From Schmidtea polychroa (taxonomy: Eukaryota): a stretch of 64,000 bases of DNA. Shown here in pieces: positions 3,442 through 55,324 of the stretch (its first letter is position 1; every line of letters begins with the position of its first letter). Position numbers and translations under genes: made by a program. The notes beneath the pieces were generated by a model. The model was not told the origin of the DNA and ran no database searches. It saw only the letters and a list, made by a program, of their open reading frames with translations. The stretch spans positions 9,300,001 to 9,364,000 of the forward strand of contig CM097886.1 of the NCBI GenBank assembly GCA_044892525.1, read 5' to 3'.

Positions 3442-3503
3442 TAACTAAACACAAAAAATAACTAGACACAAAAGTAAAGATATTAAATTTTTATTTAATA
3501 CAA

Positions 3504-14260: not shown

Positions 14261-14598
14261 GAAAGTAGTAAATTAAAGACCTTTGCTGTTATTTCTCTTC
14301 TGGTAATAATATAAGTTCATTGTTATTGGTTTATTTTAAAAAAGTTTTAAAAATACATTATTTTCATATATCAATATTTTTATTATATTAAAAATGTGAA
14401 AATTCGTTAATGGATTTGACATTTTTCACTTAACTCTTTAGATGCGAGATGCGGTTAAATCCGAATACTATTGAATAAACCTATATTTCTACTTTTCACC
14501 ACCCTTTGGGAAAAGGATTTTTTTAATATATACTAAATGTATTATGTTAACTTGGTTCATGGCAAGGCGGACAAGGCAACCGCTTTGGGCCACGCGCT

Positions 14599-15775: not shown

Positions 15776-15794
15776 GCAAGATTTACTTGTAAGA

Positions 15795-18604
15795 TAAGTA
15801 ATATTGAAACAATTTAAAATTACCTTAATTTTAAATTATTTACAATAAAAACTTTTAAATTACAATATATGAATTAAATATTAATTTAATCCTTATAACA
15901 TCCCCCTCACCGACAATCGAAACGGTATCGTGGGTTTGGATTTCTTGTCTCTTTGGATAAATCTTTTTCTCTTTTGTTTTTACGCTCGATTTTCTTGATC
16001 AGATATTGGTTTTCTTTGTAATACTCTCTATCTCGATTTTTTTTCCTATGTCCTTGATTACTTTATTTTATTGAAGTTTCTTCTTATTGTCTTCCTTAAT
16101 TTATCACTATATAGTATAAATGTCCATTTGTTTATTATTTCCTGAATAACAAATGGGCCTAAGAATTATCTTTCAAAACCTTTTCTGTCTTCGTTTCTAA
16201 CTAGGTCTCCAATCCGTGCTTCCTTATTCCATCGATTTAAATTATACCTTTCTGCAGTTTCCTTCATACTTTTTTCAGTAATACGTCTAAGTTTCTCTTG
16301 AATTGTCTGTATACCTGTCTGTAGTTGTTCTACATAGTCATCATAATTTGTAACATTCTCTCCTAGTACTCGTGTCGGTGCGATTGGAAGTCTTGATTTC
16401 TTTCCGAATACAATCTCGTATGGGGAATGCTTTGTAGTTTTCTGTTTAGTGGTTCTTAGCTTAAATTCTATGGTTAGTAGAATCATGATCCAATCCCTCA
16501 TCTTCCCTTTTTGCAACACCGCTAATCATACTTTTAGCCGTTCCAAACAATCTATCCACCAGACCATCATTTTGAGGATAATATGGTGAAGTGAAGGTTT
16601 TTTGAATACCCAAAACTTGACAGTATTTGAGTAAAAATTGTGATTGAAAGTTACTTCCACAATCCGAGTGTATTCTATCTGGGACACCGAATTTTGATAT
16701 CCAGTTTCTTTATAGTTCTTGCGCAATCTTCAGTGCTTCAGTCGTTGCCATTTGTATTAAACTTATATACTTCGAGAAATAATCGATAATTCCAAGTATA
16801 TATCTATAACCCCCCGTTGTTGCTTTAAAGGATCCTGTTATGTCGATTCCAATAATTTGGAAAGGTCTTGCACCCCCAATGTTTTGTAAAGGTGCTTTAA
16901 CTCGTACATTTAAGTTCTTATTATGCAAGCATTCCTTACAGGTTATAATAACTTCCCGTATCTCTTTATCCATGGTTGGCCAATAAAATTCATTTTTAAT
17001 GGATCCAATTGTCTTTTCAATACCTGTATGCCCTAAACAGGAATGAAACTGCCTAATAATGGAATCTCTTTCCGTTCTTGGTACTACCAATACATATTTA
17101 TCATCCTGATATTTATATTGTACATTTTGTATATTTATTGTATATTTATCATCCTGATATACTCCAATGCTATTGTGCGATGAATCAGTGTCTAAAATAT
17201 ATTGCCCTTTCTAGCTTGGTAATGCCAACAATGGCGGAGAGGACAATAACCTATTTAGCTCATTGAACGCTGCTTTCCTGTCATTCCACTGGAAACTGCT
17301 TTCATTTTTTAGCATCGCACTCAATTTCTCTGAAGTCTCTATAATTTTTAATAAAACGCCTGTAGTAATTGCAAAATCCCAAGAACGACTGCAATTCTTT
17401 TTTTTTGTCTAAATTGCTTCTATTGACTTCTTGTCATTTATTTTTTCATCCTTCGTGAGTTTATTCACTGTGACATTTGATTCATTAATAAAATCGTTCC
17501 ATTTTTCTACATATCCCAAGCCGGTTCCTGCATGAAGAGTTTTCGAACCTCCCTCTAACATGCACATATATACTAATATATACCCATTACCAATACCCAT
17601 TACTAATATATACCCATATGCGATCTTTCTCCAAATCTCATTAAAATCATCAATTTTCTCTCTACGATCATTAACTACCATATCTTTGATGAAATATTCA
17701 CCAACATTGCTAATTTCTATGTTATTCGATAAAATAACTCTATAATAATAATAATCTTGCTGAGCCTCCTCTCTCCTCACAACCGCACTCAGTACGGTTG
17801 TCATTCGTTTAAAGATGAAGCAGGAATTGTCTTAGATAAAAATGGAATCTTAATCCCTTGTTATTCAATTCAGTCATTTGCTGTATCAATAATAATTCCT
17901 TATTCCTTCATGCTTTTGAGTCCTATATAAATATGTGGAAATATATTAGGCATAATGTCATAAACATGACTCGTTTATATAGGTCCAATTAAAAATAAAT
18001 TATGCCGTAACCCTTCGATAAAAGCTTGAGTCATCATTCTTTCCTTGTCACCGTCGTACGCCATACATCATAATCGTATTCTTTTGACAAAATCAACGGT
18101 ACTTTCGTTTCTTTCTTGTATTGTATCATTTAATATGTCGACTATAACCGAAGTTTTCGACTTTTTTTCACTCATTAATTTCGTAATCTTATCGGTGTAC
18201 CACTTTTCTGCATCTTTCTCTGCCATGCAATCTACTTCCTTTATTACATCTTCTTCGAAGTATTTTAGGAAAACCTCCTTTTCTTCGTCTGCTGTTACTA
18301 AATTATGTTCCCGGAACTGCTTTACAAAATCTTGTACTTTCTTCAAATGTTTTCTTCAATCTTTTCGTTACTTCCAACTTTGAGAGTCTTTCATTAAATA
18401 GAAATTCTTGTAAGTATTCCTTTTTTGCTCATGACACCATGTTATATATCTATAAAATTATAAGATAAGAAATAGTTCAAAATATATATTCCAATAAATA
18501 AGTATTATTGAAACAATTTAAGATTATGTTAATTTTAAATTCTTTACAATAAAAACTTTTAAATTACAATATATGAATTAAATATTAATTTAATCCATAT
18601 AACA
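15795..18604 (-). mobile_element. Decayed, internally deleted Ty3/Gypsy element with short LTRs
   Basis: LTR 18440-18604 (TGTTATA...TATAACA) and partial LTR about 15795-15900; PBS TGGTGTCATGAGC (18427-18439); PPT at 15901-15908; gag, protease, RNase H and integrase (HSCLGH, CKEC, GIDITG) fragments. Confidence 0.88.
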
Positions 18605-32866: not shown

Positions 32867-33272
32867 TTAAATCAAAAATCAAATAAATAGAGAAACGTTG
32901 AGAATGATAGGTTTGGGCCAAACTGGTTTTCAACATTTTCTTCAAGTAATCAAGTAATAGGTTTAATTTTTGATGACTTTGTAATGCATTTGACTAAATA
33001 ATTTTTTCAATAATTTTCTAAGAATATTTCCATTTACACATTGATGAACTTTAAAAAAACATAAGCTAAGAAACCAGTTAACTTTATCAAGGACTTCAAA
33101 TTTATTTGAAAATAATTGTAAGATATACTGAAATTTGTGATTTAGTTTGCTATTATGATCAATCAATATATATCATCTCTAGTTAGGTGAAATATTTGTA
33201 GGACATAATAAGTTTATTATGTCGTTGTTACATAAGTCGACTTTAGCGTCAAAATGTGTTTTTAAAATTATA

Positions 33273-35598
33273 TGTAAGGTTGCCCGTGAATATTAAACAA
33301 ATAAATAACAATATGAATTAAAGATTTAGTTAAACGAAATATATATTAAATACAAAACGATAACCAAATAATAACTAGCTGCACGCTAAAGTACAGATAT
33401 CGGTTATACAAACCGCCCTAAAGATTATTTCAAAGAATCAAGGCTGGCCTTAAATGTGCCAATAGCCCGATATAGGTGAACGGATAAAGAAGAAGGATTC
33501 CCGAGGTTTTACCGCTATACTATTAACCCAGATAAATGGTTAATAGTTGAAATTAAAACAGTCAAAACAGCTACAAAAAGTCTTGGCTGGTGACTGTGCC
33601 CTTTNNNNNNNNNNNNNNNNNNNNNNNNNNNNNNNNNNNNNNNNNNNNNNNNNNNNNNNNNNNNNNNNNNNNNNNNNNNNNNNNNNNNNNNNNNNNNNNN
33701 NNNNNNNNNNNNNNNNNNNNNNNNNNNNNNNNNNNNNNNNNNNNNNNNNNNNNNNNNNNNNNNNNNNNNNNNNNNNNNNNNTTAATAATTCTGCACTGAG
33801 TAAAAGCGAACCCGAAAATTGGTTATTAAGCTTAATTTCAATTGAGGCTAATAGATATTGGATTCAAATTCCAACCAAATAATTATTGAGACTAAATTTC
33901 TAATCGATGCTAAATATTGGATCTAAATTTCCAATCGAAGCTAAATATTGAATCTAAATTTCTAATCGACACTAGTATTCTAAATTTCTGATCGACACTA
34001 GTATTCAGTGAATCTAAATTTCTGATCGACACTAGTAGTTAGTGATTCTATAAATATCCTGGATTGTGCTTGATCGATAACTAAGTTAATAATGGTGAGC
34101 CTTAAATATTTGTTCTTCTTCTTATTTTCGCAATAATTTTTTGTCGCCCCTAAAACTAAATTTTTAATTATATTTATACTATTTTTTACTTACCTACATC
34201 TATTTTTAGTAATTATTTAATTACTAAATTTGTGTGTATAATATATAATAAAATACTATAATTATTTAAAATCTAAATATAGTAATTGTTTATTACTATT
34301 TATAATTAAGTTCTAAACTTAGTAATTTTAATTCTATTTTTGGTATTTATTTAATACTATTAATAATCAATCTTTATTTAATTCTAAAGCTTTCCTAATA
34401 CTTTTAGTTCCGGTTCCTACTGAACCCCAACATGTCTTCCCTCTAACAAGATTTTCGTCCCGAAAATTAAAGCGGTAAAGACAGGGNNNNNNNNNNNNNN
34501 NNNNNNNNNNNNNNNNNNNNNNNNNNNNNNNNNNNNNNNNNNNNNNNNNNNNNNNNNNNNNNNNNNNNNNNNNNNNNNNNNNNNNNNNNNNNNNNNNNNN
34601 NNNNNNNNNNNNNNNCAACTAGATCAAAGTTTCAAATCACAAAATCAGAATAATCAATTATTGTTCTTATAGGATAGATCAAATGTTATTGTTTGGTAAA
34701 TGTTTATCAATTTGAATAATTGGATTGGATTGGATTGTCGAAGGTGTTGGGATTGAGGACGTATAGCAAATAGCTAGGTTTGTTGAATACATAGCAGAAT
34801 TGCTGATATTTTCTCTTTTTCATGACTTTGGCACTGTCATTACGGATTCTTTGTTCTACTATGTCCGGTCTGTAACTGACCACCAATGTCTCCCGTGTAC
34901 TTACTTCTTTGTACACGATTGATGAGATGATATAAGAACCCTCATTAGCCGCCTCCAATACTCCGTAATCGGGGAAATTGGACACGGCTACTTCATGAAT
35001 TGGGCCTCCGTCGTATTCCTTGATACGCGGTTTCCATTTACTATCGGGTCTCTGCCACCAACTAGGATCTTCTCTGTCGGCATCTTCCCGTATTTTAGTT
35101 GAGTTACCTCTTCCAATGAATTCGCCTTCTTTCACTATGATTGGCTCTCCTGCAACCATGGATTCGACCTTTGTTGTCAATATCTTGGTCAATGCTGGAT
35201 CTGGTGGCTGATAGTGAGTTTCTAGCAGATCGTCATCCTAATCCTGGATGGATATCCTAGGCATTTTCTTTTTTGTACTCATTAGGATCTCCTTTTTTCT
35301 TTTTGTAGAGGTAGGGACATTTTTCTCCCTTGCCTCTTTCTGGGTCGGTTCGACCGTTGTCTTCATTTTGAATTTCAAGTCTTGTAGTTTGAGTAGTGGT
35401 ACTACAGCTTGTGGTAATGCTCCTCCTTCTGCTCCTCCCTTGGATTCGATCAACGGGGCCAATGCTTTCAAGATCTTGGTGACCCGTTCAACCAGTTTTT
35501 CTGCTGGTGGTGATTTTTCCGTTTCCATTTTAGCAGAATTCACCACTCTACCATCATTGGTAAGCGTGACTTGGAGGCAATTATCATCTGTGCTCTCT
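33273..35598 (-). mobile_element. Inverted 3'-end copy of the large Gypsy element (accessory ORFs, PPT, LTR 33273-34432)
   Basis: Reverse complement of about 53103-55260; ORFs 34707-35192 and 35238-35546 nearly identical to 53509-53994 and part of 52771-53463; PPT AGAGGGAAGA; contains two N gaps. Confidence 0.92.
33605..33781. other. Assembly gap (further gaps at 34487-34615 and 38745-38885)
   Basis: Runs of N. Confidence 1.
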
Positions 35599-38533
35599 CA
35601 TAAGTGCTTCTTATATAGCATTCTAGCACTTTTAAAAGAGAAGAAATAGGTCGTAATCATCAAAGAGCCGCCAAATATTACGAATTTTTAAATCTATTAA
35701 ATTATGATGAAGTCACAGATTGTCCAATGAGACTGTGTAACATTCCCAAATTTGAGAGGAAAAATCCTGAGTTAAACTTGTCCATAAACGTTCTGTCTTA
35801 TAATCCAGCCAGTTCCTATTCTGATATTTCTGAGGATTATGTAGCTCACCACCCTCATCTTAATATTATTCATCGTTCTAAGGTTATCGATGGTAGGCCG
35901 ATTTATTTATTACTTTTGAGTAATAAAGATAAATATCACTATACGGCCGTTACAGATTTGGAAAAGTTAATGAATTGTCATTTAAATGAAAATGTAAATG
36001 TTCAAATAAGGTGTAACTGGTGCCCACATTGTCTTAATGGGTTTAGATATAAGAATGCTTTTGATCAGCATGTAGCTCTATGCTGTAAGAATCAGACTGG
36101 CACAACACTCTACACACTTCCTAAAAGTAAAGATTTATTATTTACAGATTACGCAAAAACCGTTACACCTCCCTTTGTAATTTATGCCGATTTTGAATCG
36201 GTTTTACCAGAACATGAAACACATCATCAAATACATATACCTATCTCAGCAGGTCTTTTACTTATAAATAATTATACTAATACTAAATTTTATTTTTATT
36301 TTTTTGGACCGAATTGTGTTTTGGATTTTTTAAGGAAAGTGGAGGAAATTTCTGTCACAATTGTCCTGCCATATTATGAACTCAAAGGTCATAAAGGCAT
36401 GTCTACTTTGTCTTTTGCTCAGGAGCGTGCCTTTCGATCTAGCACAATTTGTTATTTATGTAAGAAAGATATTATTAGTCCTGTAAGAGATCATTGCCAT
36501 TTTACTGGCAGATATGTCGGAGCGGCATGTAGGAGATGCAATGTCTCTCGCAGGATTAATAAGTTATTAGCCGTTGTATTTCATAATTTAAGAGGTTATA
36601 ATTTACATCATATTTCCCTTTGGGAATTAAATATTATACCTATCTCTACAGAGAAATTTATTTCTTTAATTGCTTATATTAACAAATTGCCTGTTCGTTT
36701 AATTGACAGCGTGCAATTTATTAATTGTTCTTTAGCTAAAGCTGTGAAAACTCTAACTACTTTTCCTTTAACTTCGTCTGTCTTTCAAGGGTCGATGATT
36801 CATTCTAAAGGTGTCTTTCCGTATGATTTTGCTACTTCTTTAGATGTTCTTGAATCGACGTTTGAATTACTTTCTATTTGGTCTGATATTACGGAAGATC
36901 AGTACGCTGAGGCTCAACTAATTTGGAGTCAGCATAACTGTAATAATTTGTTAGATTATATGCTAATCTACCTAAAATTGGACGTATACCTCCTCGCAGA
37001 CTATTTTCAGCAATTCCGCGGTAAGGCAATTGCTTACAATGGTCTGGATCCACTTAATTTCTATGGGATTCCCGGTATGTCATGGGCCTCAGCGCTTATG
37101 ACATTAACGGAACCCATAGAACTTTTGCAGGACATGGAAATGTACAATTTCTATGAGGGAGGTATCCGGGGTGGGTTAACATTTGTTAACAAACATTACA
37201 CGGCTACTTCAGATGACACAGAATTATTGTACATAGATATAAATAATCTGTATGGTTGGGCTCTTAGCCAAAATCTTCCGTATGGTGATTTTTCTTGAGT
37301 GAATGATAATTTGAATGATGTTTTGCTTGAATGTATGAACACGGATATTGATAACCTTCCATATGGGTACACTATGGAGGTAGATATCGATATTCCGGAA
37401 TGTGTGCATGATTTTTTGAATGATTTTCCGCTTGCGCCGGAAAAGTTGTGCCCACCTAATTCAAAGGTTGAGAAGCTTATGCTCACGCATTGGCCAAAGA
37501 GGAACTATGTTCTTCATTGGAGGCTTCTCAAATTGTATATAGAATTAGGTGCGGTGGTTGTAAATATTCATAGATGTATAAAATTTAAACAAGGACCTAT
37601 ATTTAAATCGTATATAGACACTAATACGACTTTAAGATCACAGTCTACAAGTGAAATATATAGGGACTTGTTTAAATTGTATAATAATAGCCTGTACGGT
37701 AAATCCGTTGAGAATCTCAAAAAACGTATGAATTTGAGGTTGTGTAATTCATCCGAACAGATGATATTATACTCCTCAAAGCCGACTTTCAGAAAGTCTA
37801 TAAGAATCGATGGGGATAGCCGCACATTTGGAGAAGAACTCAATTTGTTTAGATAGACCTAGCTACATTTGTCAAACAGTACTAGATCTATCTGAACTGC
37901 GGATGTACCAGCTCTAATATATTGATTTGGAGAAGTACAGGCAACAATTCAATTGCATAATAAATATTATAGCCGGTGATACAGATAGTTTCTTTCTTGA
38001 GATTAAAAATTTAAAATTATCAACTTTATTACCTCAGATGATCTCAGATAATTTATTGAATACATCTAATTAATTATGATCCAACACACCCCTTGTATAA
38101 TAGGAACCTTGAGTCTGTTATCGGGAAGTTTAAAGATGAGAGCAAGGGATTAGGTTACTCAGAATGGGTTTTCTTACGTCCTAAATGTTATATTCTTTTA
38201 GGTAGTAAGGAAACAGTGAAAGCAAAGGGGGTTAAATTACCTGGGACATCAATAAATCATGAATCTTATTTAAATTGCTTTAATAATAATCAGGTGATTT
38301 CTGTACCGCAGACTAGAATAGGTACTAGAAATCACCAACTTTTCACATTTAAAAACTCGAAAATTGCCCTAAGTAATAACGATGATAAGCGCACATGGCT
38401 AGTAAAAAACATAAGTTATGTATTTGGGCATTATTTAGGAGTTGATGACCTTAGCGATTATGATGAGGAGGAATTCGGTCCAGCTCCAAGTCCCAGTTTC
38501 GATGACAGTTCGTGGGACGAAGATGAAATGTGA
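35598..38533 (+). pseudogene. polB: Polinton/Maverick-type family B DNA polymerase, near full-length but disrupted
   Basis: CFLYSILA, VIYADFES, endonuclease-VII-like VRDHCHFTG...C, FHNL.GY, KGVFPY, GIRGG, YIDINNLYG, KLYNNSLYGK, GDTDS, GKFKDE, KAKGV, DDKR; in-frame TGA at 37296-37298 and frameshifts after 37850. Confidence 0.93.
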
Positions 38534-38575
38534 AATGATCAATTTGTATAAAAACTTTTATTTTGAATTATAAAA

Positions 38576-38614
<39 letters not shown>

Positions 38615-38989: not shown

Positions 38990-39620
38990 AAAATATGACC
39001 TTGAAAAAAAATTAACCTTGAAAAAAAATTGACCTTGAAAAAATTTGACCTTGAAAAAAAATGACCTTGAAATAATTTGACCTTGAAAAAATAATATTTT
39101 TAAAAATAATAATAATAAAATAGTCAAATGACCTTGAATAAATTTAATATTGTTTTCTCGGGAAAATGATAATAACTTTGCCAATATTAATGATGACCAC
39201 TATAGCTCATTCGAAAGGTCTTGCACTAAGCTTCAAAATAAGATATCGATCGATGAAATACACTGATGGGAATGATCTCTTTTGGCATGCCAAATAGTAG
39301 GGCACCGCTAGCACACTTAATAATATTTTTGAAAAATAATAATAAAAATAATAATATTTTTAAAAAATAATAATAAGACCTTGATGAGTCATCGCGATGA
39401 GTCATATGACCTTGGATGAGTCATGCGACCTTGAAACGACCTCGAGGAGTCATTGTCTTTGTTTAAAGGACCTTGGAAAAAATTTCTCCAAATTGATGAG
39501 AATGACCTTAAGAATGACCTTGAGAATGACCTTGATGAGTCATCGGATGAGTCATGGTCTTTGTTTCAATGACATTGGTGAGTCATATGTCTTTGTTTAA
39601 AATTTGACCTTGAAAAAAAT
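38990..39620 (+). repeat. Array of TGACCTTGAAAAA units and GATGAGTCAT units downstream of polB
   Basis: Directly visible repeats; the same TGACCTTGAAAA core occurs inverted at 55325-55990. Confidence 0.85.
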
Positions 39621-39661: not shown

Positions 39662-41190
39662 GTGCCAGCGGTACCTAATCCATCTACTGACCTTCAGGAG
39701 ACGGAATCAGAGGAGAGTTCCGATGATGAACCTAGTATGGCCACCATACTAAGCGAGTACCATGTAACCTTGCCAGGGAAAGCAAAGGTAAAAGAAGGGT
39801 CAGATTCCCTAACAAAATGTTTAAAACTGGTGGATTCCAGATATGAGTACCAGCAGAAGCTGGATAGACAATTGGAAAAATTTGGAGAAACAAAGATTAA
39901 AATTCACGAAATCGATACAGTAGTAAAACTGATATCGCAGGTTGAAGATGACCCAAAGTATCATAACGACACGTACAAAATCCTAAGGAAATTAGGAAAA
40001 CTCATGGAACATGAGTGGGATCTCCAAGATGCTCAACTCAATATAAAACTCCCCAGGATAAAGAGTATAATCTCGATATAAATGTAAGAAGCCGAGCCGA
40101 TAAATTAACAGAAACATTGACAAGTATTAAGCATCAAGGATATGACTTATACTTATGTGGAATAAAATTAGAAACAAACCAAACACTTTTACAGAACGGG
40201 ATACTCCCAGGTAGAGTGACGAAGCTCACAGCAAAGAGAGCACCGAAGCCAGTGGCAGTAATGGATCAAGATAGTGTATTCTTGATTACTCAGATGGAAA
40301 TCGAGAGATTGAAGGAAACTCAACAATTAACCCAGCGACTAGGGTTGGAATTGCAAAAATCTTCACGAGATGGAGAAACCATAAAGCAAATACTAGATTG
40401 GATGTTAGTATTACGAATACCCGTATATTTGTTGGAAGCAATAATTCCACTTATACTACCAGTGGTAAAGGAAACAAGCCCATTCCAGACGCAAATCGAA
40501 GCACTGATGAGGAGAAATGGGAAAGCTATCCGAAGTCAGCCTGATCGACAAGGCAACATTAATCTAGACGTGCGAATGATTGGAAAAGAACCATCAACAA
40601 TGATTTATAATTGTTATATCAAGGTCAAAATATTAAGGAGAAATGTGATTGCCACCGATCAAACTACAGGTATATTCGTGATATTCCATGGTAGGCAAGT
40701 GGATGATGATGAATATCTAGTGGATGTGGGTTGTCTACCGTTGGCAAGAACCACAGTAATGATCATCCCAGTAACTCCACCCGAATCACAGTGGTCATTA
40801 ATGAGACTGTCAGATATAGCAAACGAAATTGTGGAAGAGATCGAGGAAATAAGACTAGAGGAAATAAATCCCTGTCAAATGGTGGACATTGACGAGGAAG
40901 ATTACTTCTCAGAGTACGTCAGATTAAATCCAGGAGAAACAAACGTAGGAGCTACTACGTCACAAGCTGTAACAAATCCGGAGACTGAAAAACCCCCGGA
41001 GAAAGTGAAAAAAGATGGACGAGGACGTCCTAGAAAGGATCAAATGAAACCTCCACCCAAGGAGCAGTTAAATCCGGAAACGATTCGAAAAATTCAACTA
41101 AAAACATTAGCAGGGATAGCTCAAGAAGTGGACGACCAGGCGGAAGAAGAGACAACGCCAGAGAGGTCGTTATTGTGGCAACGTGTATAA
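39662..41190 (+). pseudogene. Accessory ORF with two ubiquitin-like domains and an AT-hook (one frameshift near 40053)
   Basis: QLNIKLP/QDKEYNLDIN...LYLCGIKLETNQTL and INLDVRMIGK...VIFHGRQVDDDEYLVD resemble ubiquitin QIFVKTLTGKTITLEV...LIFAGKQLEDGRTLSD; GRGRPRK at about 41017-41037. Confidence 0.7.
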
Positions 41191-41193
41191 CAA

Positions 41194-43380
41194 ATGATCG
41201 GGATTATTAGGCCCGAATGGAGAATTCCAAAGATCAAGGGAATCGAAGTGAAGAAAATAACGAAAGAGGTCAAGAAGACAATGGATAAAGTATCCAAAGA
41301 TGTATCAACAGGAAATATTCAGGATGCCATAGAAGCATTTGTACAGCAAGGATTAACAAGAGGGAAAGTGGTAACATCGCTATCATTGTTAATTCAAAAT
41401 GCCTTAGCGCGAGCAGGGAACGATAAAAGGCTTATAGAACGAGAAATCGACCAAATAGTAGAAATAGTAGATTATTACCTTGAGGTGTGGATGACAGTAA
41501 ACAAATTTTGGGAAAAGGAAATAATCCCAAAACCACGATATGAAGTCGTGGAAGAAGCCATAAATAATGGTAGTTCAGGCACAGGGAACATAAGAAGCAT
41601 GATCTTGATGTTTCTGGTAATGATGGGCATATTAAAACAAACTAATTCACTGACAGTATTTGACTGTAGTAATCCTAAACTATCTCAGATATATTTGCTG
41701 GTAGATGCAATTGAATGCAAAGAGGCGTATCCGGAGAAGGTTCATCAAGGGAAAAAGGTAGAATATTACGTCTACCAAGAGAGTGAATTTTATAGAACTA
41801 CGATAAAGGAATGTAGAATTCAGAGAGCTACATTTGAATATTATTGCGGTAGTAATAGATATTCTGCTTTCCTATCCGCAACACTAATACCAAGGCCGGT
41901 AAACATAATGCCCGAAGATTGCCTAGATGCATTTTGAAACGGAAGTGTGAGGATAGACAACGAGGTATCAATCTCGGCAGAAATTAGGAAAACATTGAGA
42001 ATAACAATCACTCGAGGGGGAACAATTGCCTCAGATGGAACCTGCGAAGGCAGAAAGGAAATTCGCGGTAGCAATTTAGTTTCCTATGTGGTAGATATAG
42101 AAGATTACTCAGTGGAATTACGAGAATACGAGGGAACATTCGATGTGGCCACAGGAAAATTGATGGCACATCCGCAATGCAATGCCAAGTTCAGTAGTTG
42201 TAGAACGGGAACCACCACATTAATTTACGAAAAAATGAGAGATCATTGTTAGTTGGCATTCCTCAAGAAAATTCCTTTTTGAAAATTAAATGGAACTAAA
42301 TATCGGGACTCCCAGAATCCAGAAAAGGTTTGGGATAAAGCAAAAACGTTGAAGAAAATCAACAAACAAGAGAAGGAAGATATCGGAGAGGAAAACACAC
42401 CTCTAGTGTTGATATCGGAAGACAAAACAAAAGCAATTCAATTCGTCCGAAAAGATAAAAAGACTAAATGTGGAAAAAGAATATACGAGACGAACTACAA
42501 AGGAATTTTCCTGTCAAGAGAATATATTCGAAATGCCAAGGCCTTACATATAAAGGATATCAAAATCACGAATTATATAAATAATAAAGTAGATTATTTA
42601 TATCATGACCTGCAAGGACAAATGCAAGATATGTATCAAGTGAAATAGTCGTGAAATAATCGTGAAATAGTCGAAATAGATTAGCAATATCTATCGTTAA
42701 CCCAGAGTTGGTTACTCCAATGTTATTGGAAGATGGAATGTTTGGCTGAATCATGGGAGAAGCTATATATAGCTATGAGTGTAAACCAGTAGAAGTACAA
42801 TTAGCCAGATTTAATCAATGCACGCTAGAACTACCAGTGTCATATCAACCAGCAATATGCAACCCGGCAATATCACCATTATACAAAATAAATGACATGT
42901 GGATATCTTTGCCGGAAAGAAAACCATCTACACAACGTGTAGAGACCTTGGAGGTGACTAAATTAAAGGATACTATGGAATTCAAGTCATTAGATGAATT
43001 AGCTAAAGGAGGGATTTACACTCAGGACGATATTGAGGAAGCAAGAAGGACATTGCTATTCCCACAAATCAGAGGTATCACGGAAATTATAAGAACAATT
43101 TATCATGATACCTTAATACGGCCAGATTACAATTTATTATTTGGACCGGAACACTATAAAGAAGCAGCAAAGAACGTAATGATGAAAATATGGGGACGAT
43201 TTACTAATTTTGGTATTTTCGTCGCCGGATGCTCAGGAATTTACGCAATATTTGTAATTTTAAAGCTGATAATTACACAATTGATGTCAACATATAGAAT
43301 ATTCAAATTTGGCGGATGGTCATGAAAACTCTTATTAGGACTATGTCCTACGTGTGCAGAATTTGCATTATTCAAACATC
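41194..43380 (+). pseudogene. env: Chuvirus-G-like (gB-like class III) envelope glycoprotein with N-terminal leader, internal signal peptide and C-terminal TM
   Basis: MILMFLVMMGILKQTNS/LTVFDCS; C.I...YYCG; GTCEG; CG...YETNY; YINNKVDY; GEAIYSYECKPVEV...C..ELPV; LAKGGIY.QDD...LLFP; hydrophobic FGIFVAGCSGIYAIFVIL; several stops and one frameshifted zone. Confidence 0.82.
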
Positions 43381-44020
43381 ACAGAAAAGAAATCAAAGAA
43401 ATTAGACAGAAACATTTGGTTAAACATGAAGTAATTGGAACAGAAATGGATGAATATTCCAGTTATCGGGACGATAACAATTCAAAGGGAGGAGGTAATG
43501 GAGGCTCTTGTGAAACATCTTCAAGACCAAATCAATCACGAAAACAGAACTACAACAAAAAACCAAATCAGCAACAAAGAAAATCGAGATTTAAGGAATA
43601 TCTTCCTCCATATGACCAATCAAAGTAAATCTAGGTGAGAAGACAGTCCTCAGAAGGAGAATATGATAGTTCCGAGCAAAAATTCGACATAAGGTCACCC
43701 AGATTCAAGAGAAGCCCAAGATATGTACAATTGCCAACCCTGAGGAGTTTACCAACCGCACCAAACGATGGGCTGGAACATTCAAGGGAAACGACACTCA
43801 GAACAGGACGCCACCATTGGAAAATTGGTGAAGATACCATATTTAATAATCTGACATGTTCAACATTGCCAGAATTACCCGAAGTGCACTATCCAAAGGA
43901 AGCGTTAGAGTCACTTAAAGCTAAATTTAAAGAATATAATCCTCAACTGAGTGATCCAAAATTACTGAAGCAGAACAAACAAGAGCCAATACAATCGGTA
44001 TCTCGCACGATACAATCCTG

Positions 44021-47000
44021 ATGGTCAATAATCCAGTGAACTTGGATAAAAAGCCAATGATAAAAATAAGAGTGAACCGACATACAGTCAATGCGGTGAT
44101 AGAGTCAGGAGCAGATGGTACCATAATTGAAGCTAAATTGTTGAACCATCACGAATTACATTCGTTAAAACCGACAGGAGTAAAATTAACAGGAACAAAC
44201 GGATCCTCATTAAACGTAATAGGATCATTATCTTGTCAGATTAAGCTATGTGACCAAGAGCTCCATCACGACATCATAGTGATGAGAAGTCTCCTGGCCG
44301 AATGTCTATTGGGAATGGACATCCTAAAAAGACTACGAGGAGTAGTATTCGATTGCACATCTGGATTGTTAATCCGAGCACGAGGTAAAAAGAGAAATAT
44401 TTACAACGATAATACAGCTTATATAGATCATACAACCATCATACCACCCAGAACGGAAACAGTATGCTTTGTAGCTACAAGCAATAATTGGGAAGGTGAA
44501 GTTGTATTCGAACCAGACGAAAGGTTTTCGGAGAAATACAACATACCAGTTATTCATAGCGTAGGCTTAATAGTCAATGGCAGAATACCAATCAGGGTAG
44601 CCAATCTGGACGTTAAACCACTATACTTATACCCAGATACCAGAGTGGGCAGAATCTGGAAACAAAACGAACAACAAGCCACGGAAGAAGGGTCGATACT
44701 CACCATAAAGGCTAAAGAAAGAGAGCCAGACATTGATTACTACGACGCACCTACGGCCAATAGCAAAGTGCTAACCAGAAAGGAAAATATTCAAGCAAAT
44801 ATGCTATTGAGGAAATACGACCAGGTATTCGCGAAACATGAATACGATCTGGGAAAAACAAACTTGTTAGAACATGAGATTGTTCTCACCAATACAAAAC
44901 CTATAAAGTTGAGACCATACCGTATTCCATTCAGTCTGGAGGAATCAGTAGACAAACAGGTGAAATTGATGTTAAAACATGGCATAATCAGGCACAGTAA
45001 ATCACCATATCAATCGCCAATGATGGATCAGTACGATTGTGTAACGACTATCGCATGGTTAACGAGGCAACATGCAAAGATAGCCATCCATTGCCATTAC
45101 TAGATTATATTTATGGACGCATGAGAAACGCTAGGTTTTTCTCAGTAATGGACGCTCAAAAGGGATTTTATCAAATTAAGTTAAAAGATGAGACTATACC
45201 AATAACAGCGTTTTCTACGAGTATGGGTCATTACGAATATAACGTAATGCCATTTGGACTCACGGGAGCTCCAGCCACATTTCAAAGAGCAATGAATTTG
45301 ATGCTCATGGATGTACATCATGCGATGGTATACATTGACGACGTCATAGTATTCTCGCCAAATTTGGAAAAACACTTGGAGCATTTGGAAGATGTATTCA
45401 AGAGGTTGATCAATGCAAACATGAAAGTGAAACCGACCAAATGTAAATGGGCTGAACCAGAAGTGGTATATATTGGCCACATCATCTCACGAGATGGGGT
45501 CAAACCGGATCCAACTAATGTCGAAAAGGTAAAGAATTTCCCGGAGTCTAAAACCGTTAAACATATCAAATGGTTTTTAGGCCTAGTTGGATACTACAGA
45601 AAATTCATTAGAAACTTCTCGGTTATTGCTTTTCCATTCACGCAGTTAGAAGGCAAAAACGTCAAATTTGTGTGGGGAACAGAACAGCAGGAAGCATTTG
45701 ATATGCTCAAGGAAAAACTCGTCAAGCCACCTATATTACGATTTCCAGACTTTGAGAGACAATTTTTGGTTATGAAAGATGCCAGGCACTCGGGCATAGG
45801 TGCTGTGCTAGGTCAGAGAGATGACCTAGGAGATGAGTATGCAATTGTATACGCTAACAGAGGATTAAAACCACACGAGAGAAACTACGCAGTGATAGAA
45901 CTAGAGGCTTTAGCAATTGTGTATGCTATAACCCAGTTTAGGACATATCTATGGGGTTGGAAGATCATAGTGTACACCGATAATAGACCATTACAGTGGC
46001 TGACGAAACACACAATGGATACCTCAAAACTAGTCCGATGGGCATTAATTTTACAGCCATATGACATAGAAATCCATTATAGAAAAGGAGATCATAATGG
46101 TAATGCAGATGCTTTATCGAGAATGGACCAGGAGGAAGAAGCAGAAGATGTGAAGGAAGGGCGTCTCGAAGGGACTATCTTCACATTGACCAGAGAAGCC
46201 AACAAACTAGCCGATTTGATGGAGGCACAAAAATCTGACGAAGAGATCAATGTTATTCGTCAATCCTTGGAAGCAAAATACGTGCCCACAGAATTCACCA
46301 AATACTGGGAAAAGAATAAAGACAAGTTTGTGCTGGAGGAAGGATTAGTTAAATATTCAGATGTAAGAGATAATGTTATAATGGTCTCTTAGAAATTTTG
46401 TGAAGCACTCATGTTGCAGTATCACGATGGAGCCTTAGGAGGACACCTGTCATCCAGAAAAACATTGTCGAGATTAAAACAAAAATATTTTTGGCCAGGC
46501 ATGAAACAAGACGTTAAAACCTGGTGTCAGACATGTAAGATCTGTATCACCAGGCGAAATACCGGAACGAAACCCCACGTACCAATGAAGCCGATGCCTG
46601 TACCATCTACACCCATGGAAATGACGGCAATGGACGTGTTGGGGCCATTCAAAGAATCTAATAGTGGAAACAAGTACATATTAGTGTTCTGCGACTACTT
46701 GACTAAGTGGCCGGAAGCCTACCCGACGCCTAATCACAAAGCTGATACGATAGCTAGAATTTTCGTTGAACAAATTGTCTTTAAGTATGGAGTACCCACG
46801 AAGTTATTAACGGATTGGGGAACAGATTTCATGAGTAATTTGCTCAAAGGAATAAATGATTATTTCGGAGTTCTAAAGTTGAATACTTCCCCATATCACC
46901 CACAGGCGGATGGGTTAGTAGAACGATTTAATGGAACATTAGCTAACATGTTAGCATCATATGTAAATTCAGGGCAAACGGACTGGGACATCCACATTCC

Positions 47001-47430
47001 ATCCTGTTTATTTGCATACAGAAATGCAGTGCACGAAGGAACAGGTGAAACACCATTTTACCTAATGTATCTGAGGTAAAGTAAAAAATCTGTTGTTTTT
47101 CCCTAAAGCAACACAGTATTTAGATCAAGAAAATTATCTAATAGAGATGAGGGAAAGGATGCAGGAAGCATGGACTAGAGCAGGTCTCAGTATAAAATAT
47201 AATCAGGAAGCATCAAAAGATTATCATGACCGAAAAGCCAAGGAACGTGGCATAATGTTTGGAGACCAGGTGATGTTGGAAAGTCATTATAACAAGAAAG
47301 CTTATCACCAAAACTCATGCGGAATTTCAAAGGGTCATATGAGGTATTGAGAAATTCAGATACAAATCTCATACTACAACTTGTAGCCAACCGAAAAGCA
47401 GAACCAATAATGCTAATCGGTGTAAAAAGT
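44021..47430 (+). pseudogene. pol: Gypsy-type pol: protease, RT, RNase H, integrase (disrupted)
   Basis: IESGAD (catalytic D to E), RPYRIP, DAQKGFYQI, MPFGLTGAPATFQ, YIDD, ELEALAIV, YTDNRPL, HHCC finger, DVLGP/TDWG/VERFN; frameshift at about 45020 and several stops. Confidence 0.95.
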
Positions 47431-47489
47431 GTGAAATCCCAACAAAAGGGATCTCCGGAAATTCAAAAGTAAAAGCACTAGAGAAACAG

Positions 47490-48465
47490 GTGAAACCAAA
47501 CTCCAATGAAGAAGCACAAAAACACCGATACCCATTGAGATCACGGGGTGTTCCAAAATCAGTAACTTTTATGTTGATAATAAGTTGTATGATGACCTTT
47601 GCTATGGAAAAAAGGGATAAAAAGGCCTATTTTCAGCCTATGGCGATGCGTGGAAAATTTACATTTTATAAGAACCTATCACGGAATTCGTATACTTAAA
47701 ACGTGTGATAATGCCACAAAATTCAATCTGCATTTCTACAATAAGTACTTACGGGTCCGCCAATTTAACTCAGTAGAAAGAGAATGGGATTTGTATGATT
47801 TAAAAGCCGAGACGGATTACAAACTGCACATCGCAGCATCAAGGTTATATCAGAGTGGTTGGTATACCTATCATGTATCAAATTGGATTCTAAGGACGGC
47901 GGATTTCACAAATCGCATATCGATATCTTACGAAAAAGATAAAGTTAAATTTAGTCAGCTACTTATCGGGGAGGAAAAGGTAAAAGTCAATATTCTAGAT
48001 GGACTAATCACGAGAGAAACAATATGGTTAGTATCGAACTCTCCTTCCAAAGAATATTCGGTTCTAGTTATATACTATAGTCCGAGGAAACGGCAGGACG
48101 ATAGGTGGTTCGAGGTATTCGAGGAGATATTACCTCTTAAACATCCAGTTACAACGAAAATACCACCAAAAGTAGTTAGGGAGAATATGGTGATACATCC
48201 CGCGATGTGGCAACATCTCAGACAATTGCCACCTATCAAACAAATTTCTTGCCAAACGACTCCAAACCTGACAAACTGTTGTGATTGCAATGTCATCACA
48301 AACTTCAACGCGAGATACATTCTGAAAATACCCACAGTGGTATGGATCACGGTATCGGCCGTACTATCACTAATAACCACAGTGATAGCTATGGGTATTT
48401 GGACCAAGCTATATTTTAGACAAGCCATAAGGGCTTACGACGGAGTGCTGATGTCGAAATTATGA
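47490..48465 (+). pseudogene. Second type I membrane protein after integrase, with an FN3-like motif
   Basis: Hydrophobic SVTFMLIISCMMTFAM (signal-like), WDLYDLKAETDYKLHIAA (FN3 tyrosine-corner-like), C-terminal TM IPTVVWITVSAVLSLITTVIAMGIW, short tail; one frameshift near 47655. Confidence 0.55.
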
Positions 48466-48494: not shown

Positions 48495-48567
<73 letters not shown>

Positions 48568-48571
<4 letters not shown>

Positions 48572-51500
48572 GGTGGGTCGAATGTTAATAAATTTTGAGT
48601 TCAAGAAAGGAAACATGGTTAAAAAGTTGTATTTTGGTATAGAAAAATCGAATCAAACCATTTTACTTAGATTTATGGACATTTACTGCTCCCAACTTTT
48701 CTCCGAAAATGCAGTTCAACATAAGTGTGAAAACAATGTAATTTGGCTAGTGTCGGAATGTGTTTTGCGCCTTTGTCCATATTTAGATGTAGCTTTCTTA
48801 AGAGCTTATAAGTATATTATTTACTCTCTTGGGCTGAGATAGTATATTCTGTGTCCTCATCCCGCATTGAAATATATCCTGACAACGTCAGTGATTAGGA
48901 AGGGCCAAATTTGAATTATCCTTTTCAAAGACAAAAATCAACTTTCGAAATTATTTTTTATTAAAAACATCCAGCCAAAAGTTTAGAAATGTATTAGCGA
49001 GGGCATAAAAAGAAGTCACATGAAATCAGCTTTGCTTTGCACCTTGGGCAATTCCTTCCTTGATTTTTTACACAGTAGTACCATACCATGTCTGGACTTG
49101 TGACCAAACACTTTGCAACTGGCAGAAGAAACATCTTTGATGGCTCTTTCAACGGCTTGAGAATGACAGGGAAATTGTTCTAATGTAATTTTCTTATTCA
49201 TCTTCAATTCATGATCCAATATATGAGATAAAAGAGGGGGAGGCGTCAAATTACATTTTGTCCAGTCAATCATGTCAGCATATGATGTAGCAGACGACTG
49301 AAGAAAGACAGTATTCTTGTCCATAGTGCGAATCACTTCGGAAGGGAGAAAATTTTGTCTTGCAGTTATGATTTTTTCTGTTGCAAACTTTCTGATTTCT
49401 TCATCATCATCACCAACAGCAGCTAGGAGTATATTTTCTGGATGTGAGAAGTAATTGTTGTTCTGAATGACAGGAAAGATGATTTCTTGGTCTGATGGAT
49501 CCAAATCCTGCAGAAGTTGGAGCATATAAAAAATATTTCTTGCACCATCTTGGCATGACGAGTGAATCTTTATATAAAACCATGACGGTCCATAGAAATT
49601 GACAATAAATTTCACTATTCGCATGAGAGGTTCAGATGGAGCAGTTTCGGACATATATAGTCGCAGAATTCTATTAGCTTTCGTTAGCCAGCGACTGTGA
49701 TTCAAATTTCCTGGTTGTGCCATTTGTAGAAAAGGGACATCCTTGTTGTTGTGGTACCCTTTCTGGACTGCCAAGCATACTCTGAGGAAATACAATTGAT
49801 CAGTGTTCAATTCTTTCTTGACATTTTCACTAATATCTACGACCTTTCCAGGAAGGGACATAAAGGCTACTACGGGCTTGTCTTTTGGATCAAAATCAAG
49901 AACGCTTCCTATTTCACCACATGACGTTTTTGGACCTTTTGTTTCTCCACCATCGACGACTGAAAAATACTTCCTGAATGGCAATTCATTTGCATGCAAC
50001 AAGCATATCAGCCATTGTAGAGGTCGCCCTAGGCTTTTTTCGAGTCTTCTGATTATTCCATTATTTTTTCCGGTGTTTGTATTGGTTCCATCGCACACAA
50101 TTGCTTGAAGGGTCAGTGAGGACTGCGTGCTAACGATGATTGACATGATTTCTTTGCCAATATCCACAGCTTTACTACTTTGAGGTACAACATGATCGAT
50201 ATATGTATCCCCTGGAAAGGCGACAATCACATAATGCTCCTCTTTTAGGATCCTTCTATGAAGTAAGGTGGAATCTTGTTTCCCGTCGAAACCGAGGCAA
50301 ATCAAGTTTTTCGCTTCTGCTGAATGCTGTTCAATTTCTCTCTCCCTCCAGTACTTTCTCTGACGTCGTAATTTTGCGGGATCGATGATTGTTTGAGAGG
50401 ATAACAGTTCCATATCTTTCAGAAAAGCGTTTACTAGCAAACACGTGTCTCTGTTGCTCACACCACATCTGTCAACAGCTTTACTTAATTCAGGATAATG
50501 TCTTCTATTTTGAAATTCATCACATTCTTCTACGCTTGACTCTGAGCTTTCTGTTGAATTGTCTAACTTATCTTTACTTTCATCACTAGCGGCTTCACTC
50601 TCCGTGTCACTTCTTGAGGTCGGATGTAGATCGTTAACTTCAGTGTCCATTATTTCATTTTTCATTTGTTTTCCTTTTCCTGTAGGGCTGCTTTTCGTTT
50701 GTTTTCTCTTCAATTTTGAGGTTTCCTGTCTGTCCGTATTTCCGATTTTCATGTTTCTGGTAGTTTGTTGGTCAATCCAGAACTCCCACTCTAAGGTAGG
50801 AATTTTCAAGGCCAATCGGCATGTACACTGACTTCTTCCACGAGCACCATCATTAAAACATTTGCAGCAACATATGTCAAACAATTTGGAAAACGAGCTT
50901 AACTTATCTTGAAATTTGGCAGATGACCTCTTGCATACTGGATACTTCTCTAATTCACGCACTTTTGATATTAGTCGCTTGACACGAACCACAATACTAC
51001 TGAACTCAACAGTTGGGATACTTGCCTTCATATAAATTTCCTTCACCTTATTTGCGAGAAGAGTTGCTTGTTCGTTAAAGCCAGTATGAAATTGCGTACA
51101 TTTCTCATTGTAACAGTAATCACGAAACACATCTTCACAAGTAGGTAATTGGTTTCTGGGTAGTTCACAAGTTTGACCAAACAGACAATGACGTGATTTA
51201 CTTCTTGTTTTGCGAAATTGCTTATTTCTCTGTCCCTTCATAACTGCTCTTCTGTACTCAGCTCCTGCAAAATAAAAGTGAATCATCAAGTTAACTTTTT
51301 TAATTATGTCCAGCAAACACTTGACATCCAATCGAAACAAATTAAATTATCTGAGTTTAGACTGACTAGTAGTATCCATGTGGATTATGTGTTGACTGTA
51401 GTGTGTGTGTTAGTATTGTTCAGAAGAAATTGTCTTTGTGAGTGCTTGTGTGAAGGTGCTTCCGTGAATTAACCTCTCTATACATGCACGCGTTAGCTTG

Positions 51501-51724
51501 GACTTGTGAATAGAGCATGTCAAAAATGGTCTTTCTGCAAGCGTGTGACTGCTTGCAGGATGAATTTACAATTTTTACTGGGATAGTACTAATACATACA
51601 AACAAAAGTTGGGACCTGTAAACCCTTTTAAACAGCAGTCTTTTGCAGGGATATTTCATTTTCTAGCATAAGCACAACTTTTTAGGCATGTTTGGAGAAA
51701 AAAAAAATTTTCGACCCACCCTAA
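48568..51724 (-). mobile_element. hATm-like DNA transposon inserted in a (TA)n microsatellite
   Basis: 14-bp TIR TTAGGGTGGGTCGA at both ends; both flanks are (TA)n. The subfamily call rests on recalled TIR and motif pattern. Confidence 0.85.
49016..51340 (-). CDS. Intact DDE transposase (hATm-like), up to 774 aa
   Basis: GFDGKQD, CDGTNTNTG, QWLICLLHANELPFR, HSRWLT, PCHSQAVERAIK; no stops; true start may be the downstream Met near 51240. Confidence 0.88.
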   Translation of the reverse strand: MFRLDVKCLLDIIKKVNLMIHFYFAGAEYRRAVMKGQRNKQFRKTRSKSRHCLFGQTCELPRNQLPTCEDVFRDYCYNEKCTQFHTGFNEQATLLANKVKEIYMKASIPTVEFSSIVVRVKRLISKVRELEKYPVCKRSSAKFQDKLSSFSKLFDICCCKCFNDGARGRSQCTCRLALKIPTLEWEFWIDQQTTRNMKIGNTDRQETSKLKRKQTKSSPTGKGKQMKNEIMDTEVNDLHPTSRSDTESEAASDESKDKLDNSTESSESSVEECDEFQNRRHYPELSKAVDRCGVSNRDTCLLVNAFLKDMELLSSQTIIDPAKLRRQRKYWREREIEQHSAEAKNLICLGFDGKQDSTLLHRRILKEEHYVIVAFPGDTYIDHVVPQSSKAVDIGKEIMSIIVSTQSSLTLQAIVCDGTNTNTGKNNGIIRRLEKSLGRPLQWLICLLHANELPFRKYFSVVDGGETKGPKTSCGEIGSVLDFDPKDKPVVAFMSLPGKVVDISENVKKELNTDQLYFLRVCLAVQKGYHNNKDVPFLQMAQPGNLNHSRWLTKANRILRLYMSETAPSEPLMRIVKFIVNFYGPSWFYIKIHSSCQDGARNIFYMLQLLQDLDPSDQEIIFPVIQNNNYFSHPENILLAAVGDDDEEIRKFATEKIITARQNFLPSEVIRTMDKNTVFLQSSATSYADMIDWTKCNLTPPPLLSHILDHELKMNKKITLEQFPCHSQAVERAIKDVSSASCKVFGHKSRHGMVLLCKKSRKELPKVQSKADFM

Positions 51725-52228
51725 TATATATATATATATATATATATATACGTAGAGCTCCAGGTAGCATTAAAATTCGGCATATGTAGATCTTTTATAA
51801 CAAGACTCATGCATATCTTTTTAGCTTATTATGGCATATCAGTATATCTGATATTTTGGTTAATAATTTTTATTTCTAGAATGCAGAGCCATCAGATATC
51901 TCAATATCAAGGAAGACAAGGAAGACATAGCACTACTGAAGGAGAAACTCATATATAAAAACCTGGAGAAGCAGGTAACTGAACAAAGTCGAAAAGGGCA
52001 ACGGCACTGGTTCTACGGTCATTGCTCAGGCATACCCAACAATTTCAAATTCGACGAGGCCCCAAAACGTCAAATGATAATTTCAAGAATCCCGGGCAAG
52101 CATAACGCCAGCATTAGGCTTACCGATGTCATGCATGAGTTTGGCAGACATATCTGACCAACCACCTGTGGATACACGCCATTAACAAACCATTTACGGT
52201 TTATGTTCCTGGTGCCACAAATTCTATT

Positions 52229-52890
52229 TTGCAGCAAAAGCATACAACCCTCGAAATATCTCACTATTATGTGAGGGAATGGACACCATCGTCGCAATGG
52301 AAATCTTGGAACCCCACAAGGAGACACAAACGAGATGGGTCAGCGAACCAAACTGGAGATACAATGTCAATGACAATGATATCAAAACGTTTGGACCCCA
52401 GACAAGAGGATAACCTCACCATTTTCCTAGCAGCTCATTACGCCACACTACGACAATTCCTCAAACCAGCCATTGTGGCAATTTCAATTTCGCATTTTAA
52501 CGGCGATTTAATCCTCAACACTAGAGTTACCCCCAGATCACAGGTCAAACATTACCAATCACATGCGCATGTTATGACCGAAAGGGAAATAACCGGACAG
52601 TTTGATGGAGAAGACTGTGCCGAAAGAATTAGGAAATTCTGCAATGGGAAAATCATCGTGGGATTATTGGTAAAGGATCTATTGGAAGTAATTAGATTTC
52701 CAATGCAACGCGCCCTCGGAATCCGTGAGTTAAGCGCAGCTAAATGCCTCGAAAATAGGGACTTAAAGAAATGCAACGGGTATTACCGTTTGGCATATTT
52801 GGCATATTTTGGCGCATCGTTTCTCGGACCTTCAAACAGGGAATGATGTTACGACTATTAAGGAAATATATGACAATCTGCGAGATATCT
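52229..52890 (+). pseudogene. ISG20/REX4-like DEDDh exonuclease domain with degenerate catalytic motifs
   Basis: AIVAISISHFNGDLILNTRVTPRSQV...GKIIVG aligns with REX4 [26 protein letters not shown]...GRILVG; NDVTTIKEIY in a shifted frame matches EDARATMELY; Exo I DxE replaced by AAH. Confidence 0.68.
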
Positions 52891-53994
52891 GAATTGATGA
52901 TATTTCACCCGATACCCGAAAATGTGGTGACATCACAAATAAAACAAACGGAACCAGAAACCTCAAGCATGCATAAACCCTTAGCTATGGAGAACTATGT
53001 AAAAGAAGACATGCCCAGGTCCAAGTTAATGAAAATAGTGGAAGAAGATTCCTTGTCGCCGCCAGCCATCTCAATTGCTGACGAAGACGATTATGCCACT
53101 TGCGAGAGCGCAGATGATAATTGCCTCCAAGTCACGCTTACCAATGATGGTAGAGTGGTGAATTCTGCTAAAATGGAAACGGAAAAATCACCACCAGCAG
53201 AAAAACTGGTTGAAAACGTCACCAAGATCTTGAAAGCATTGGCCCCGTTGATCGAATCCAAGGGAGGAGCAGAAGGAGGAGCATTACCACAAGCTGTAGT
53301 ACCACTACTCAAACTACAATACTTGAAATTCAAAATGAAGACAACGGTCGAACCCACCCAGAAAGAGGCAAGGGAGAAAAATGTCCCTACCTCTACAAAA
53401 AGAAAAAAGGAGATCCTAATGAGTACAAAAAAGAAAATGCCTAGGATATCCATCCAGGATTAGGATGACGATCTGCTAGAAACTCACTATCAGCCACCAG
53501 ATCCAGCATTGACCAAGATATTGACAACAAAGGTCGAATCCATGGTTGCAGGAGAGCCAATCATAGTGAAAGAAGGCGAATTCATTGGAAGAGGTAACTC
53601 AACTAAAATACGGGAAGATGCCGACAGAGAAGATCCTAGTTGGTGGCAGAGACCCGATAGTAAATGGAAACCGCGTATCAAGGAATACGACGGAGGCCCA
53701 ATTCATGAAGTAGCCGTGTCCAATTTCCCCGATTACGGAGTATTGGAGGCGGCTAATGAGGGTTCTTATATCATCTCATCAATCGTGTACAAAGAAGTAA
53801 GTACACGGGAGACATTGGTGGTCAGTTACAGACCGGACATAGTAGAACAAAGAATCCGTAATGACAGTGCCAAAGTCATGAAAAAGAGAAAATATCAGCA
53901 ATTCTGCTATGTATTCAACAAACCTAGCTATTTGCTATACGTCCTCAATCCCAACACCTTCGACAATCCAATCCAATCCAATTATTCAAATTGA
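52771..53994 (+). CDS. Accessory ORF pair of unknown function separated by one in-frame TAG (53461-53463)
   Basis: Both ORFs in the same frame; near-identical copy on the minus strand at 34707-35546. Confidence 0.55.
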
Positions 53995-54102
53995 TAAACA
54001 TTTACCAAACAATAACATTTGATCTATCCTATAAGAACAATAATTGATTATTCTGATTTTGTGATTTGAAACTTTGATCTAGTTGTTATTTATTATTGCT
54101 TG

Positions 54103-54154
<52 letters not shown>

Positions 54155-54256
54155 ATCAGTTTATTTAATTTTAATTTTAATTTTTGTTATCAGCTGCAAC
54201 GGCCCTGTCTTTACCGCTTTAATTTTCGGGACGAAAATCTTGTTAGAAGGAAGACA

Positions 54257-55260
54257 TGTTGGGGTTCAGTAGGAACCGGAACTAAAAGTATTAGGAAAGC
54301 TTTAGAATTAAATAAAGATTAATTATTAATAGTATTAAATAAATACCAAAAATAGAATTAAAATTACTAAGTTTAGAACTTAATTATAAATAGTAATAAA
54401 CAATTACTATATTTAGATTTTAAATAATTATAGTATTTTATTATATATTATATACACAAATTTAGTAATTAAATAATTACTAAAAATAGATGTAGTAAAA
54501 AATAGTATAAATATAATTAAAAATTTAGTTTTAGGGACGACAAAAAATTATTACGAAAATAAGAAGAAGAACAAATATTTAAGGCTCACCATTATTAACT
54601 TAGTTATCGATCAAGCACAATCCAGGATATTTATAGAATCACTAACTACTAGTGTCGATCAGAAATTTAGATTCACTGAATACTAGTGTCGATCAGAAAT
54701 TTAGAATACTAGTGTCGATTAGAAATTTAGATTCAATATTTAGCATCGATTGAAAATTTAGTCTCAATAATTATTTGGTTGGAATTTGAATCCAATATCT
54801 ATTAGCCTCAATTGAAATTAAGCTTAATAACCAATTTTCGGGTTCGCTTTTACTCAGTGCAGAATTATTAATCAGTTAGTTAATATTTATATATATATAT
54901 TAATACCTATCTCATTTTTCTCACAAATAAAGGGCACAGTCACCAGCCAACACTTTTTGTAGCTGTTTTGACTGTTTTAATTACAACTATTAACCATTTA
55001 TCTGGGTTAATTGTATAGCGGTAAAACCTTGGGAATCCCTCCTCTTTATCCGTTCACCTATATCGGGCTGTTGGCGCATTTAGGGCCAGCCTTGATTCTT
55101 TGAAATAATCTTTAGGGCGGTTTGTATAACCGATATCTGTACTTTAGCGTGCAGCTAGTTATTATTTGGTTATCGTTTTGTATTTAATATATATTTCGTT
55201 TAACTAAATCTTTAATTCATATTGTTATTTATTTGTTTAATATTCACGCGCAACCTTACA
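54257..55260 (+). repeat. 3' LTR, 1004 bp (TGTTGGGG...CCTTACA)
   Basis: Preceded by purine tract AGAAGGAAGA; the same boundaries in the inverted copy at 33273-34432. Confidence 0.88.
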
Positions 55261-55324
55261 TGTAATTTGTGGAGTCAAATCTTTTTGAGTTAGATTGAAC
55301 TACCCATCGAACCTAACAGATACG

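Follow-up and report, generated by a model that had tools for sequence, protein, structure and literature searches.

The stretch of DNA analysed here (64,000 nucleotides of Schmidtea polychroa, hereafter the window) carries, at 41.6-43.3 kb, a fusion glycoprotein of the Monjiviricetes type (PF24664), with protease, RT, RNase H and integrase behind it. It raises the question of whether a retroelement may be built as one giant polyprotein that places its envelope before Pol and, as was originally predicted for this locus, has no recognisable capsid Gag. Very probably, the window holds a dead and 5'-truncated copy of a Ty3/gypsy element of about 14.8 kb, whose other copies carry a frame of about 3,350 codons that runs from Gag through two ubiquitin-like domains (UBLs), a Bcl-2-like domain, Env, protease (PR), RT, RNase H (RH) and integrase (IN) to a membrane tail, and that is likely a single membrane-threaded polyprotein.

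All features below are on the forward (+) strand of the window unless stated otherwise. The remnant of ORF1 spans 39689..48465, from codon ~381 to the end of a Gag-Env-Pol frame of ~3,352 codons, and it is interrupted by 11 premature stops and 8 frameshift sites. As had been claimed, the open reading frames 40015-41190 and 41191-41937 share one frame with a single stop, at 41188, between them, and the frames 42750-43325, 43326-43628 and 43635-44021 share a second one that is broken by stops. A frameshift private to the window copy is located near 43967, and others near 40054 and 42640; its Env contains a 63-base deletion near 42846 and several of the stops.

The genome searched (781 Mb, with four large contigs among those matched) harbours many copies that match the window at 90-94%. 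Its Env-like DNA candidates number about 250, with 251 in the first search, of which 40 were scored. I examined 30 copies taken from the top of two search lists; as these are the ones ranked highest by the search tools, the counts given here are not genome-wide. The window stops 41188, 41935, 42250 and 43323 are open in 30/30 aligned copies, 43626 and 43632 in 29/29, and 46390 in 23/23. The stops at 41188, 43626 and 43632, which might have persisted across copies, are in fact private to the window. Among 30 aligned rows (29 copies and the window), mapped on the frame of one copy, no internal stop is common to more than two, and no 10-codon frameshift bin to more than four, while the terminal stop is present in 23/23. 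Natural open frames of 3,366-3,369 codons hold 4 of the 121 scored Env matches, and these uninterrupted copies bear out the single giant polyprotein with Env before Pol, albeit with a product of 3,350-3,353 aa counted from the first Met instead of the roughly 2,500 aa first suggested. The order within the open frame is Gag-UBL-UBL-AT-hook-Bcl-2-like-gB-type Env-linker-PR-RT-RH-IN-signal/FN3-like/TM, followed by a separate ORF for an ISG20-like exonuclease, and in one pair of open copies pN/pS is 0.00-0.31 across every domain. The one-frame layout is also observed in three other families (3,319-3,346, 3,492-3,495 and 3,027-3,034 aa); of a fifth family a single copy was fetched, which is broken. 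Two copies located 220 kb apart on opposite strands have six stops and several frameshifts in common, which points to a genomic duplication and not to independent insertions.

At 44019..44023 the window reads TGATG, which had been proposed as a junction where Pol is translated by termination and reinitiation, parting Env and linker from Pol. The TGA triplet is present in 28/28 aligned copies, as such a mechanism would have it. However, in 4/4 fully open copies this TGA is offset by one base from the frame, the ATG being read there as an internal codon, and it is the private frameshift near 43967 that exposes the TGA in the window. Because the TGA is out of frame in the open copies I reject reinitiation, which retains practically no probability, and regard the motif as an out-of-frame TGA over an internal Met codon (~1853) and not as a regulatory junction.

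Between env and protease the window contains neither a capsid nor a CCHC knuckle, as was correctly noted, and a tblastn search of the window for the Gag of its family yields no match (best E 0.79). Together with the 4/30 copies in which a Gag match is absent from the fetched stretch, this could suggest an element without capsid, whose polyprotein opens with the UBLs. Yet 26/30 other copies carry Gag in frame ahead of the UBLs, and alignment to other copies shows that the window copy begins at position 2340 of the element, near codon 381, which is why its 5' LTR and primer site are gone as well as its Gag. I consider a capsid-less element hardly conceivable for these reasons; judged from the sequences, a canonical Gag opens ORF1 and has been lost from the window by 5' truncation, so that the original caveat of a lost 5' end with a gag upstream was to the point. 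Pfam Retrotrans_gag is matched in 3/4 families (best E 3.5e-10), with the capsid of the window's family alone at E 0.002, under the Pfam cut-off. The zf-CCHC profile is matched at E 4.1e-09, with four CCHC knuckles in Gag, and PDB capsid matches, to dArc1 and PNMA2, are weak (E 0.4-0.6).

The examined copies measure 14.5-14.9 kb and have LTRs of ~1.1 kb with TG...CA ends; the paired LTRs are 95.6-100% identical in 20/30 copies, and a 4-bp target site duplication (TSD) is found in 9/9 copies in which both end motifs are matched. The 17 nt of the primer site are complementary to the 3' terminus of a host tRNA-Trp plus CCA, and tRNA-Trp is the likely primer of reverse transcription. A tandem tRNA-Trp array with a 284-base period is found from 55022433 on contig C4 of the same genome, with 821 exact pattern matches genome-wide. 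Sister copies show the end features of a Ty3/gypsy (Metaviridae) element, i.e. paired TG...CA LTRs, a primer-binding site, a polypurine tract and a short TSD, of which the window keeps a 3' LTR remnant only (54257..55144, degenerate and patchy, 70-82% to open copies). The Gag of the element has the capsid, over the cut-off in sister families only, and the CCHC knuckles, both missing from the truncated window copy. Its Pol, at 44042..47432, has the expected order PR-RT-RH-IN, with the aspartic protease at 44042-44347, RT at ~44975-45513, RNase H at ~45691-46083 and, at ~46426-47432, an integrase with an H2C2 finger and a GPY/F motif. The spacer between PR and RT occupies the position of the dUTPase-like domain of the planarian element Burro, and a Pfam match to such a domain was found there in 0/3.

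Ahead of Env, the frame carries ubiquitin-like and Bcl-2-like cargo. A predicted helical bundle and the first UBL lie at 39746..40257 (UBL ~40031-40242, with the frameshift near 40054), the second UBL lies at 40555..40773 (ISG15 matches at E~0.02), and each UBL comes after predicted helices. The two UBLs of the original prediction are corroborated by profile matches to ubiquitin/NEDD8 and ISG15 and by a predicted fold that matches di-ubiquitin/ISG15. The AT-hook is likewise present as a GRPRK motif at 41014..41037, found in 3/4 long-frame families checked. After it, at 41173..41529 and with the window stop 41188 inside, lies a Bcl-2-like domain with BH1/BH2-like motifs. A five-family profile matches both Bcl-2A1 (E 2e-05) and Bcl-xL (E 1.5e-04); the BH2-like W-x(3-4)-GGW is kept in 3/5 families and is degenerate in the window's family, and the model of this region has a pLDDT of ~50, with Bcl-2 absent from the highest-ranking Foldseek rows. 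A homologue search with the UBL-Bcl-2 region scored 7,986 candidates of 1,207-3,842 aa, none of which matched at E<=0.001. As suggested for Burro (PMC6431247), the UBL and Bcl-2-like cargo would probably act against the ubiquitin and cell-death pathways of the host. In addition to the retroelement matches in long frames, and separate from them, dozens of multi-copy short frames (~150-180 codons) in the genome match Bcl-2 near the Pfam cut-off, many of them with TAG inside the match.

Directly behind the Bcl-2-like domain, a hydrophobic stretch at 41587..41643 (best 11-mer hydropathy 2.97) is a putative Env signal peptide, and the PF24664 profile begins immediately past it. The gB-type (class III, Monjiviricetes-like) Env ectodomain with its TM anchor (~43215-43271) extends over 41644..43271, and in the window it is matched in four PF24664 pieces (E 7.8e-11, 0.015, 6.3e-08 and 2.2e-32). 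A cytosolic tail or low-complexity linker follows at 43383..44014, in which the stops 43626 and 43632 and the frameshift ~43967 are all private to the window. From hydropathy, which is the basis for topology and cleavage here, I infer the following course. Synthesis of Gag and cargo would take place in the cytosol. Behind the Bcl-2-like domain, the hydrophobic stretch would then work as an internal signal and direct the gB-type Env to the lumen of the ER, and the Env anchor would bring the chain back to the cytosol for the synthesis of linker and Pol. Another signal, behind the integrase, would send out a small FN3-like ectodomain that stays anchored at its C-terminus. The polyprotein would be cleaved by signal peptidase and by the protease of the element, so that Gag, Env and Pol would arise at ~1:1 with neither frameshift nor splice. 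Reverse transcription is likely primed by tRNA-Trp, and integration yields the 4-bp target duplications observed. Spread from cell to cell would be a further part of this course.

Alternatively, the frame may be continuous while the abundance of Env or Pol depends on splicing, on internal initiation or on an internal signal that is used in part only, with Env serving intracellular budding or being vestigial instead of mediating entry from cell to cell. The Env ectodomain has few N-glycosylation sites and no furin-type motif, and retroelements usually make less Pol than Gag, all of which speaks for this possibility. However, strong purifying selection acts on Env (pN/pS 0.06 within the family and 0.30, uncorrected, between families, one pair each), which is kept in all five families examined, and according to the accessible part of a survey (PMC13524379) not every gB-type env conserves the furin site. 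I therefore regard this alternative as improbable, and prefer the threaded polyprotein with equimolar products.

The frame continues after the integrase with a predicted type I membrane protein at 47544..48465 (signal 47544-47612, TM 48334-48411). The pattern of a hydrophobic stretch, ~240 residues and a C-terminal TM recurs in four families, and the ectodomain has a pN/pS of 0.17 in one pair of open copies. Its FN3-like nature is a lead only, from Atlas feature matches of a sister family's piece to FN3 proteins (0.87); Pfam fn3 gave no match in 6/6 post-integrase pieces, no PDB match reached E <0.1, and a single-sequence model has a pLDDT of 39. This protein occupies the canonical env position. 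It is possible, though on the unlikely side, that one polyprotein supplies a two-glycoprotein envelope, with the gB-type fusogen accompanied by an FN3-like attachment protein in the manner of herpesvirus gD or paramyxovirus H/G; if true, this would be a retroelement with split binding and fusion proteins. I found no description of a second membrane protein behind the integrase in the literature searched, though the figures and supplements of Grohme 2018 may contain one. Beyond ORF1, the remnant of ORF2 lies at 51809..53895 (720 aa in open copies) and contains an ISG20/ISG20L2-like DEDDh exonuclease fold at ~52421-52933 (E 1.1e-08), whose catalytic acidic residues look degenerate. ORF2 is present in three families, and none was seen in the 3,319-aa family. 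Three parts had not been recognised in the original prediction: the Bcl-2-like domain, the membrane protein that follows the integrase, and ORF2.

That an element can place its envelope within one Gag-Pol polyprotein and add ubiquitin-like and Bcl-2-like cargo was already published in 2019, when Arkhipova and Yushenova described Burro/GYPSM1, giant gypsy-like LTR elements of Schmidtea mediterranea (PMC6431247). According to the available text of that account, Burro has Gag, Ubi2/SUMO-like and BCL2-like domains and an in-frame env before the protease in one ORF, and the window's family resembles it in its ubiquitin-like cargo and in the env located in frame between the BCL2-like domain and the protease of one ORF. 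However, Burro is given there as >30 kb and 4,873 aa, in contrast to 14.5-14.9 kb with ~1.1-kb LTRs and 3,350 aa; its MATH, BIR and ankyrin cargo has no Pfam match in the window's family, and neither a post-integrase membrane protein nor an exonuclease ORF is mentioned in the part available (PMC6431247). Since it lacks these size and cargo features of Burro, the family is not filed as Burro, although it works like it; the separation is drawn from Burro's description only.

Related elements are found among the GAG-ENV-POL HSV/gB-type errantiviruses of Platyhelminthes, Nematoda and Bryozoa (Chary & Hayashi, eLife, PMC13524379), whose supplement, in its accessible part, lists six multi-copy Schmidtea families (Smed_errantivirus_1-6) with spans of ~14.5-18 kb. 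These share with the window's family the Gag-Env-Pol order, the gB-type env between gag and pol and the multi-copy state. Its Env agrees with that of Smed_errantivirus_4 at 65 of the first 100 positions, counted by eye, which would suit a Schmidtea-type host, and the three other families fetched resemble Smed_errantivirus_1, _2 and _3, also by eye (PMC13524379). As the Env is identical to none of the six listed Env rows, the window's family is probably an uncatalogued sister of Smed_errantivirus_4. In the available main text the words ubiquitin, Bcl, fibronectin, exonuclease, polyprotein and Burro do not occur, and the supplement gives the tRNA type as 'none', in contrast to the tRNA-Trp site found here (PMC13524379). 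A separate exonuclease-like ORF3 after pol is also known from bdelloid Juno/Vesta, as far as the accessible account goes (PMC5408684), but that exonuclease is of the DEDDy type with intact catalytic residues, whereas the ORF2 of the window's family resembles the DEDDh enzymes ISG20/REX4 and looks degenerate. Troyka elements were considered and ruled out by their CG ends, 3-bp TSD and lack of env, as stated in the part of their description available (PMC12440569). The present analysis contributes one more family and its primer site for tRNA-Trp, and it supports the retention, in at least four divergent families, of a second membrane protein behind the integrase.

In a host phylum other than that of the flatworm element, the nematode NERV (Sacco et al. 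2022) reportedly has a continuous gag-env-pro-pol ORF. Its env ahead of pol is cited as such in the accessible text of the errantivirus survey (PMC13524379).

A nested DNA transposon at 48562..51728 on the reverse (-) strand, with terminal inverted repeats and a 776-codon frame, sits in a TA microsatellite and splits the element between ORF1 and ORF2. The same transposon, 99% identical and with TAGGGTGGGTCG termini, is present in a second element copy (joined locus, reverse, 13713-16896). Both sites lie in the TA-rich ORF1-ORF2 spacer, ~190 bases apart in two different copies, and therefore represent two independent insertions. The 776-codon frame has no Pfam match, and I take the transposon to be hATm-like. 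Upstream, window 35599-38583 contains a decayed frame for DNA polymerase B (PF03175) and endonuclease VII, after which GACCTTG-rich repeats (38990-39620) abut the truncation point. As a polB stretch of 90% similarity adjoins a second truncated element copy, the polB element may have caused these 5' truncations. Finally, an inverted duplication of 96-99% (window 33265-35600 versus 53101-55268), which comprises the end of ORF2 and the region of the 3' LTR of the element, brackets the polB element and the truncated copy.
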